Assembly (NCBI GenBank): GCA_016192455.1
Contig: JACPUC010000029.1
Span: 1 to 64,000, forward strand
Direction of reading: 5' to 3'
Origin: Candidatus Tectimicrobiota bacterium
Lineage (GTDB): Bacteria; JACPUC01
DNA length: 64,000 bases
Made by a program: the position numbers and the translations under genes. The notes beneath the pieces are model-generated. The model searched no databases, had not been told where the DNA came from, and was given only the letters and a program-made list of their open reading frames with translations. Each line of letters opens with the position of its first letter. Position 1 is the stretch's first letter. Below are positions 14,605 to 16,523 of the stretch, in pieces.

Positions 14605-14730
14605 GAGAGGCCGCGGCGCACCGAGCCGGCTCATGGCGAGGACCGACCGCGGAGACGCGGGGGACGCGGAGGAAGGCTGAACCACTGACGGACACGCTTG
14701 CAAGGGCCGGGGCGCCCACGGACTCCTGTT

Positions 14731-14757
14731 GTAGGGGCGGTTCGCGAACCGCCCTAC
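14731..14757. repeat. GTAG-type REP palindrome
   Basis: GTAGGGGCGGTTCGCGAACCGCCCTAC, same family as 24351, 31381 and 48991. Confidence 0.85.
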
Positions 14758-15152
14758 GATGAAACGCTGGTTGGCGCGGATCGGTCTCCATCGGTGTTCA
14801 TGCGTGGGTTTGACTTCAATAAGCAGGATGTCCGTTTCACAAAAGCGATGATCCAGTGGGCGGAATGCCATGGTGACGGGCCGCGGAGAGCGGCAACACG
14901 GAGCGGAGGGTCGGAGCATTCGCAACGCCACAAGCCCCGACAACCGCGAAGGAATACCCGCGGCCTGCCTCTCGTTATCGCGGGCACAAGCGAAGCCAGG
15001 GCAGCAGGCGCCGGGGCGTGATGACCTGTCCGCCTCCGGCGCCGACCAGCCCGCGCGAGGGGACGGGTCCGCGGCAAGAGATGGGGTGGGGCCACAGGGG
15101 TTTCCGCCGGCGAGTTGAGGGAAGGCAGTTCACGAGGGAATCGGAGGGAGAC

Positions 15153-16523
15153 ATGCAGTACGACGCCATTGTGATCGGCTCGGGCCAGGCGGGGAAACCG
15201 CTGACCTTCAGCCTCGCCGACCGGGGCTGGAGCGTGGCGCTGATCGAGCGCGGCGAGCTGGGCGGCTCCTGCGTCAACAGCGGCTGAACGCCGACCAAGG
15301 CGATGGTCGCCTGTGCGCAGGTGGCGCACTACAGCCGCCAAGCGGCACGCTGGGGAGTGAAGACCGGAGAGGTTTCCGTTGATCTGCCGGCGGTGATGGC
15401 GATGAAGGAGCAGCTCGTGCAGCGCTTCCGCTCCGGCATCGCGGGACAGATCGAGCAGCGCGAGAACCTGCGGCTCTATCGCGGCCAGGCGCGCTTCAGC
15501 GCCGCGCACCGGGTGCGCGTGGGCGACGACGAACTCGAATCGGAGCACATCTTCATCAACACCGGCACCCGGCCGCTGATCCCCGCCATCCCCGGCTTGA
15601 ACAGCGTGGACTACCTGACGAACTGCGGCATCCTGAACCTCGCGGAGCTGCCGGAGCACCTGCTGATCATCGGCGGCGGCTACATCGGCCTCGAGTTCGG
15701 GCAGATGTTTCGGCGCTTCGGCAGCCGCGTCACCATCGTGCAGCGCCGCGGCCAGCTCGTGCCGCGCGAGGACCCGGAAGTGGCCGAGGTGCTCCAGGGG
15801 GCGCTCGAAGCGGAAGGCGTCCGCATCATCTGCAACGCCCAGGCGCGGCGCGTCGAGGGGCGCGGCGACGCCGTCAGCCTGGAGATCACGACGCCCACTG
15901 GCGAGGAGACGTTGACAGCCTCCCACCTCTTGGTGGCGGCCGGGCGGCAGCCGAACAGCGACGACCTGGGGCTCGAGGCCGCAGGGGTGGAGGTGACCGA
16001 GCGCGGCACGATTCGCGTCAACAGCCGCCTGGAGACCAACGTCCCCGGCATCTGGGCGCTCGGCGACGTGAACGGCGGGCCGAACTTTACGAACATCTCC
16101 GACAACGACTATCGCATCGTCTACGCGAACCTCATCGAAGGAGGCGAGCGCAGCACCAAGGGGCGCATCGTCCCCTACGCCATCTTCACCGACCCGCAGC
16201 TTGGGCGCGTCGGCCGCACCGAGCGGCAAGCGCGGGCGGCCGGCTATCGCCTGAAGATCGGCGGCATCCCGATGAGCTGGGTGGCGCGGGCGATGGAGCG
16301 CCAGGAGACCGCCGGGCTGATGAAGCTGGTCGTCAACGCCGAGGACGACCGCATCCTGGGCGCCGCCATCCTCGCCAGCGAGGGGGGAGAGCTGGTGCAG
16401 CTCCTGCACGCCCTCATGCTGGCCGACGCCCCGTACACCCTCCTCAAGGGCGCCATCTACATCCATCCGACGCTCGCCGAGGGCTTCTTCACCCTGATGG
16501 AGAACGTCAAGCCCGTGGACTAA
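15153..16523 (+). CDS. pyridine nucleotide-disulfide oxidoreductase (RclA/MerA/DLD-like), probable selenoprotein (UGA at codon 45)
   Basis: IGSGQAG FAD motif, GGSCVNSG[TGA]TPTK active site, IGGGYIG, HPTLAE; the two ORF-track pieces are in the same frame, separated only by TGA 15285-15287; GGAGGG RBS. Confidence 0.88.
15306..15325 (+). promoter_or_regulatory. candidate bacterial SECIS hairpin
   Basis: GUCGCCUG-UGCG-CAGGUGGC; loop starts 27 nt after the UGA, with G at loop position 2. Confidence 0.55.

Follow-up and report, generated by a model that had tools for sequence, protein, structure and literature searches.

Does a stop codon at a catalytic cysteine of an otherwise intact enzyme gene mark a broken gene or a selenoprotein? 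This question is raised by a disulfide reductase gene of a Candidatus Tectimicrobiota bacterium (assembly GCA_016192455.1), located in positions 1 to 64,000 of contig JACPUC010000029.1, the whole stretch analysed here and hereafter called the window. Read from 15153 to 16523 on the forward strand, the frame comprises 456 sense positions and ends in TAA; its one internal stop, TGA 15285-15287, occupies the second Cys (residue 45) of the motif GGxCxNxGCxPxK. The 411 codons 3' of the UGA are open and the remaining 455 codons of the gene are intact. An initial annotation, made from the sequence alone, had described this TGA as the only interruption of the frame and proposed that it encodes selenocysteine (Sec); translation confirmed the first point. 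Most of the checks that this annotation had named came out in its favour and, on the evidence set out below, UGA45 probably encodes Sec in a class I disulfide reductase.

The read-through product matched the Pfam domains Pyr_redox_2 (220.6 bits) and Pyr_redox_dim (86.1 bits). With both domains, a C40-U45 centre and an HxxxxE motif, it has the features of a class I pyridine nucleotide-disulfide oxidoreductase. Its best NCBIfam match was NF004992 (PRK06370.1-4, 'FAD-containing oxidoreductase'; FAD, flavin adenine dinucleotide) at 559.5 bits, under the cut-off of 629. Homolog alignments start at the Met encoded by ATG 15153. As the initial annotation had stated, HPTLAE is intact (H438) and there is no C-terminal Cys pair, the Cys and Sec positions of the full product being 40, 45, 54, 158 and 227 only. 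Its description of the second Cys as the flavin-proximal thiolate also agrees with the available text of PMC8358701, which assigns, for the CxxxxC of this family, the role of interchange thiol to the N-terminal Cys and that of FAD charge-transfer thiolate to the C-terminal Cys. Since the C-terminal Cys of the pair has this role, the proposed Sec would be the partner of the flavin. Both Cys of the pair are described as essential in RclA (PMC9335216, available text). The mis-annotation that had been anticipated is found as well: the public gene call for the locus, P0002, is a 406-aa fragment that begins at Met51 and has neither the FAD-binding GSGQAG loop nor the redox centre.

The genome of this groundwater bacterium (4.46 Mb in 31 contigs, 88% complete, 66.8% GC) was then searched by profile for the Sec machinery that the initial annotation had named as a check on its proposal, and all parts of it were present. 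SelA (491.5 bits) and SelB (366.1 bits), encoded by adjacent genes on contig C23, scored above curated cut-offs, as did SelD (389.3 bits), which carries 1 in-frame TGA itself. One tRNA-SeC (tca) was found in the genome. A UGA could also be read by another route, either general reassignment or near-cognate read-through to Trp or Cys that is independent of a selenocysteine insertion sequence (SECIS), and this would likewise yield a full-length protein. Nothing specific favours such a route, however, and it is at odds with the dedicated Sec machinery, with a standard-code scan showing ordinary genes that end in TGA and with the presence of just one in-frame TGA here. We regard it as highly improbable.

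A genome scan for in-frame TGAs with coding-like flanks returned 587 candidates, 166 of which had a downstream hairpin at or below -6. Twenty of the 166 were chosen by eye for Pfam testing, and in 17 of these a Pfam domain spans or ends at the TGA; one of the others (L234) proved to be two adjacent genes and two had no Pfam match. The 17 Pfam-backed genes comprise four of CMD/AhpD-like type, three of GrdB type (GRDB), two each of AhpC/TSA and UGSC, and one each of deiodinase-like, DsbA-like (DSBA), rhodanese, Ig-like domain, Meth_synt_2 and CoA-transferase (CoA_trans) type. For L250 and L251, both among the 17, the TGA falls in a second Pfam stretch whilst the best stretch alone is displayed. 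By these predictions, the genome holds at least 17 other selenoprotein genes and is a heavy user of selenocysteine. A search of the genome for a close Cys-type counterpart of the reductase yielded none, the sole other match being 33% identical, and this too favours Sec.

Some members of this set deserve description in their own right. The strongest hairpin of the Pfam-verified genes belongs to L233 (1-1323, minus strand; C22:212009-213331), which lies on the window's contig but outside its 64 kb. L233 encodes a Meth_synt_2 protein (residues 236-409) with an in-frame TGA at residue 312, in FGFHLU of the cobalamin-independent methionine-synthase catalytic domain, and its hairpin has a 9-bp stem and a GGU loop 19 nt downstream (-17.1). 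In L235 (1-876, plus strand; C27:94837-95712) the in-frame TGA is at residue 103, within the CoA_trans domain (residues 9-224), and 23 nt downstream of it lies the GGC loop of an 8-bp hairpin. Neither the Meth_synt_2 nor the CoA_trans type is in Table 1 of a 2026 review (PMC13188914), a catalogue of 119 prokaryotic selenoprotein families. Three paralogous GrdB-type selenoprotein genes (glycine/sarcosine/betaine reductase B) occur in this 67% GC genome, L247 (C5:55966-57399), L248 (C30:92615-93943) and L249 (C31:29254-31005); in each the TGA stands directly after the GRDB domain and precedes a CGCUGC-GGG/GGC-GCAGCG hairpin. L246 (1-528, minus strand; C20:52208-52735) encodes a protein that is small and looks secreted. 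Its Ig-like domain (HYDIN/VesB-like) spans residues 61-172, and the TGA, at residue 116 in EGCUPPE, precedes a 7-bp hairpin with the loop CGUGA. The protein may correspond to the DUF1573-type entry of the catalogue.

Three hairpins (H1, H2 and H3; Table 1) overlap downstream of UGA45, and H2 and H3 are mutually exclusive. H1 is the competing CGACCA/TGGTCG hairpin of the initial annotation; it is real, and it is the hairpin that appears in the minimum free energy (MFE) fold. Its loop starts just 10 nt after the UGA, too near for the published bacterial SECIS (bSECIS) model, and a ribosome positioned on the UGA would presumably unwind it. The loop of H2, UGG, starts 16 nt after the UGA, and the hairpin has an energy of -7.2. 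Genome-specific SECIS features were taken from the 17 verified elements: their loops start 16-23 nt from the UGA, are 3-6 nt long and have GG or GU beginning at loop position 1 or 2, and their stems comprise 5 bp or more. H2 passes on all of these. Ordinary Cys codons seldom do so, with 2.2% (at or below -6.0) and 1.5% (at or below -7.2) passing in a background of 6,572 Cys codons from long coding open reading frames (ORFs) of this genome. Cys-type relatives of the gene were also compared at -6.0 or below, and 0 of the 53 in its own clade and 1 of 71 overall passed. Residue 50 is Thr in 47 of the 53 clade relatives and Ala in none, and reverting the Ala50 codon from GCG to ACG (Thr) in silico abolished H2. 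Thus, H2 exists because of the lineage-specific Ala50.

H3 is the 8-bp hairpin on which the initial annotation had relied. It exists, with its loop UGCG 26 nt after the UGA, G at loop position 2 and an energy of about -10.9 kcal/mol, and it agrees with all four terms of the published bSECIS model; it nevertheless fits this genome's own SECIS elements worse than H2 does. An H3 of this strength was equalled in 1 of the 53 Cys-type clade relatives and at 3.9% of genome Cys codons, and H2 and H3 jointly were matched by 0.5% of genome Cys codons. Residue 54 is Ser in 39, Arg in 13, His in 1 and Cys in 0 of the 53 clade relatives, and Cys54 adds two pairs to H3. Judged by these comparisons, the acting hairpin is most likely H2, alternatively H3.

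A metagenome collection was scanned for sequences in which TGA takes the place of the second Cys of the active-site motif, and at least 120 matches were obtained (L113-L232). Among the 120 matches listed, 114 are family genes with an in-frame TGA at this codon and 6 are chance matches. Downstream of the TGA, 39 of the 114 have complete frames of at least 395 codons, 69 are open to the contig end and 6 contain early stops. These last six (L117, L133, L158, L181, L191 and L219) could be decaying copies, sequencing errors or genes with second recoded codons. The complete rows among the matches listed fall into three TGA clades, A (25 rows), B (5) and C (8), whose identity to the window protein is 28-35%, 34-35% and 49-51%, respectively, with Cys-type rows intervening in the tree. 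Clade C sits in a separate 25-row clade (Shimodaira-Hasegawa-like approximate likelihood ratio test (SH-aLRT) support 99), and the window gene groups with none of the three. NCBIfam has no dedicated model for clade A, B or C; clade C matches NF004992 at 549.6 bits. The 120 relatives listed for a clade A representative (75-100% identity) are all truncated gene calls of 341-429 aa.

Each of these clades keeps its own conserved hairpin with a G-containing loop after the UGA. In clade A the loop is GGU, 17 nt downstream, and the hairpin is retained via the rare codons TTG-GTA-AGG; clade B has a GGC loop at 26 nt; and clade C has a stem at 24 nt, formed by the codons that also form H3 in the window gene. 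Covariation in the clade A hairpin was not significant, since changes on both sides were seen in only 1 pair and equally high scores in 219 of 500 shuffles, so the case for this hairpin rests on its conservation and register: 79.8% of cells are paired, against at most 58.5% when the register is slid. By simple stacking energy, just 3 of the 25 hairpins in clade A and 1 of the 5 in clade B attained the published -7.5 kcal/mol. With so few hairpins of these clades reaching it, the published threshold is not directly comparable with the energies used here.

Could the TGA be an error of sequencing or assembly, the true base at 15287 being C or T? The assembly is of metagenome type and contigs drop rare variants, which leaves some room for this. 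Against it, separately assembled contigs from two runs, X2 and X3, showed 0 differences over 14900-15709 at depths of 16.3 and 26.8, in a comparison that used 1,801 nt at 80% likeness and contigs, which conceal rare variants. The two runs belong to the same study and are not independent of the probable source. As the X2 and X3 contigs show no differences, the TGA is unlikely to be a one-off assembly error, and we consider a wrong base here very improbable. Two runs of other studies, X5 (~88% nt identity) and X6 (~95%), hold relatives that span the TGA site, on an 825-nt contig with 69 differences in 602 nt and a 202-nt contig with 9 differences. The X5 relative is one base short at window position 15603, its contig showing 2 gaps altogether.

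Two bodies of evidence weigh against Sec at this codon, the first of which comes from the homologs. The usual proof, conservation of the UGA in orthologs, is absent: TGA occurs in 0 of the 78 motif-matched loci (of 80 from species genomes, 46-68% identity), all of which have TGC or TGT, and in 0 of the 53 clade relatives, which have TGC in 42 cases and TGT in 11. No internal stop was found in 30 other matches across 40 further genomes, and the 119 best non-self proteins from a large collection (65-70% identity) are all full length. In a 110-row tree, the window gene is the sole TGA row in a 54-row clade (SH-aLRT 94), the rows nearest to it there coming from assemblies of planctomycetes and acidobacteria. 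The TGA-bearing homologs of clades A, B and C are distant, at about 50% identity or less, and phylogenetically separate. Thus, the check on homologs with TGA at this Cys, which the initial annotation had also named, gave a divided answer: 114 of the 120 matches listed carry it, but they are distant and every close homolog has Cys. With the gene alone among 53 Cys-type sequences, Sec would mean an independent Cys-to-Sec switch. A search for shorter proteins gave nothing closer, the top identity being ~70% whether full-length or fragment. The 40 comparison genomes are all related at the 'same domain' level only, with no near kin among the species representatives examined.

The second body of evidence concerns the putative insertion signal. 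The MFE fold of the 61 nt from the UGA takes H1 and is unexceptional (z = -0.79, with 36 of 200 shuffles equally stable). The energy of H2 (-7.2) falls just short of the published -7.5 threshold by a simplified energy, and the genome-specific criteria that it passes were fixed only once H2 was known. The 17 reference genes had been pre-filtered by hairpin score and picked by eye, so that the sensitivity of these criteria (17/17 at or below -6.0, 15/17 at or below -7.2) is inflated whilst the background rates are unbiased. The spacing of H3 (26 nt) and its loop (G then C) lie outside the range of this genome's own SECIS elements. Finally, no SECIS family matched in a permissive Rfam scan of 15100-15500, the one hit being to a miRNA and due to chance (E = 5.1).

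These observations suit a young nonsense mutation, in which a single transversion turned TGC into TGA, the gene is a recent pseudogene and the hairpins are by-products of GC-rich coding sequence. Every close homolog having Cys, a lone TGA row in its clade and an unexceptional local fold are what such a mutation would leave. SECIS-like hairpins also arise by chance, with 12.4% of genome Cys codons passing the published model at or below -7.5, and draft genomes such as this one (31 contigs, 88% complete) do include broken genes. The mutation would, however, have had to strike the very codon at which three other clades have Sec, to do so in a genome that carries at least 17 further selenoprotein genes, and to fall just ahead of a hairpin that is found at 1.5% of Cys codons and in 0 of 53 relatives and that relies on a lineage-specific substitution. 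It would also have left the other 455 codons intact and be present at depths of 16-27 in two more samples. We therefore judge a nonsense mutation unlikely, and Sec at residue 45 remains the reading that we prefer.

If UGA45 is read as Sec, the locus would encode a full-length, 456-residue FAD- and NAD(P)H-dependent enzyme of the class I disulfide-reductase type. SelB and Sec-tRNA(Sec) would decode the UGA, recruited by the hairpin in the coding sequence just 3' of it. Sec would replace the C-terminal Cys of CxxxxC, the residue that exchanges electrons with the flavin, and the redox centre would pass back and forth between two states, a Cys40-Sec45 selenenylsulfide and a thiol/selenolate pair whose selenolate points toward FAD. 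The change would be a lineage-specific Cys-to-Sec switch within a Cys-type family, independent of those in at least three other clades. A wider proposal is that Cys-x4-Sec class I reductases are real, widespread and uncatalogued, with at least four independent origins (A, B, C and this genome), that gene callers truncate them systematically, and that the window gene is the youngest case, its SECIS still being shaped through Ala50 and Cys54. We hold the chances of this wider proposal to be evenly balanced.

Table 1. Features of the reductase locus (window positions).
Feature	Position	Strand	Remark
Shine-Dalgarno-like GGAGGG, 5' of ATG 15153	15143..15148	+	read in the sequence; putative function
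Read-through gene, 456 codons + TAA, class I FAD/NAD(P)H disulfide reductase (Pyr_redox_2 + Pyr_redox_dim)	15153..16523	+	
GSGQAG dinucleotide (FAD) binding motif, residues 9-14	15177..15194	+	
TGC, Cys40, first (interchange) Cys of the redox pair	15270..15272	+	role according to the available text of PMC8358701
In-frame TGA, proposed Sec45, at the charge-transfer (flavin-interacting) Cys position	15285..15287	+	
H1, competing hairpin CGACCA-AGGCGA-UGGUCG	15292..15309	+	part of the MFE fold
H2, hairpin AGGCGA-UGG-UCGCCU, loop 15304-15306	15298..15312	+	best SECIS candidate
GCG, Ala50, lineage-specific	15300..15302	+	gives a G-C pair of H2
H3, hairpin GUCGCCUG-UGCG-CAGGUGGC, loop 15314-15317	15306..15325	+	
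TGT, Cys54, lineage-specific	15312..15314	+	two innermost H3 pairs and G at loop position 2
HPTLAE (H438-E443), HxxxxE acid-base motif of the interface domain	16464..16481	+	motif according to the available text of PMC11107202

Upstream of the reductase start, the ~550 nt that separate it from a UbiD-family gene (14605-15152) contain no coding-like ORF as judged by GC content at third codon positions.

We also compared the enzyme with named families of this superfamily. After NF004992, the next NCBIfam scores came from the RclA, MerA and lipoamide-dehydrogenase models, all below their cut-offs. MerA has a C-terminal Cys pair and neighbours from a mer operon. The window protein scored 381.8 bits on TIGR02053 against a cut-off of 454.45 and has no Cys after residue 227, whilst its gene has as neighbours UbiD, an NMT1-like binding protein, a ferredoxin and xanthine-dehydrogenase-type subunits; assignment to MerA was rejected on these grounds. 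The nearest solved structure, 6kgy/6kyy (311.6 bits), aligns the TGA with the second Cys of its CxxxxC; 6kgy we take to be RclA. Membership of the RclA and Har families was likewise rejected, with scores of 400.8 against 740 (NF040477) and 350.9 against 650 (NF041853). The protein also has only one of the two conserved active-site lysines in the FAD-binding loop that the available text of PMC11107202 gives for the subclass, GSGQAGK providing Gln and Lys. From these scores and motifs, the predicted enzyme is RclA/Har/MerA-like yet outside all three families.

The hypothiocyanous-acid reductases RclA of E. coli and Har of S. pneumoniae resemble the window protein in fold, domain order, CxxxxC and HxxxxE, and in having no extra C-terminal redox centre, but their second Cys is not encoded by UGA. 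Mammalian-type (high-Mr) thioredoxin reductase is another class I flavoprotein disulfide reductase that uses Sec, in a C-terminal XCUX (PMC11107202, available text). There, Sec lies in an extra C-terminal centre, the flavin-adjacent CxxxxC is all-Cys and the insertion signal is in the 3' untranslated region, whereas in the window gene Sec would lie in the flavin-adjacent centre and the signal would be bacterial and within the coding region. In the wider group of two-dinucleotide-binding flavoproteins, Table 1 of PMC13188914 gives two predicted bacterial selenoproteins with Sec at a redox Cys, the CoA-disulfide-reductase type (UGxP) and type III sulfide:quinone reductase (HxxU). These are other families with other motifs, and in that table neither has a Cys-x4-Sec pair; on TIGR03385 the window protein scored 82 bits against a cut-off of 578.8. 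Clades A, B and C are of the same superfamily as the window protein, with TGA at the identical codon and a conserved hairpin, and clade C shares its NF004992 neighbourhood.

The name 'mercuric reductase' calls for care, as public sources apply it to Cys-type relatives of the window gene. A selenoprotein called 'putative mercuric reductase / metal-binding protein' (NF041115) has UxxU, with two Sec, and not a CxxxxC centre. The UxxU 'putative mercuric reductase' is in both the 2026 review (PMC13188914) and a 2022 review. In our own reading, UxxU corresponds to the metal-binding CxxC of an N-terminal domain, and the window gene has no such domain.

No class I reductase whose CxxxxC centre contains Sec is listed in Table 1 of PMC13188914, though survey supplements might include one. 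A search confined to the open full-text literature yielded no report of a Cys-x4-Sec reductase, and this selenoprotein type is absent from NCBIfam. We describe a predicted bacterial Cys-to-Sec redox selenoprotein in a family for which none has so far been listed, and 'not catalogued' is the limit of the claim.

Public gene calls for such enzymes appear truncated in hundreds of cases. As the type is missing from the 119-family catalogue and from NCBIfam, counts of the soil and groundwater selenoproteome would be underestimates. If UGA45 does encode Sec, a selenolate and not a thiolate would be the direct electron partner of the flavin in an enzyme of the glutathione-reductase type, making the family a natural experiment on selenium in flavin-chalcogen charge transfer and in resistance to over-oxidation. 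The window gene itself would then show, as is seldom possible, a lineage-specific Cys-to-Sec conversion of recent date and the coding changes from which its SECIS is built.

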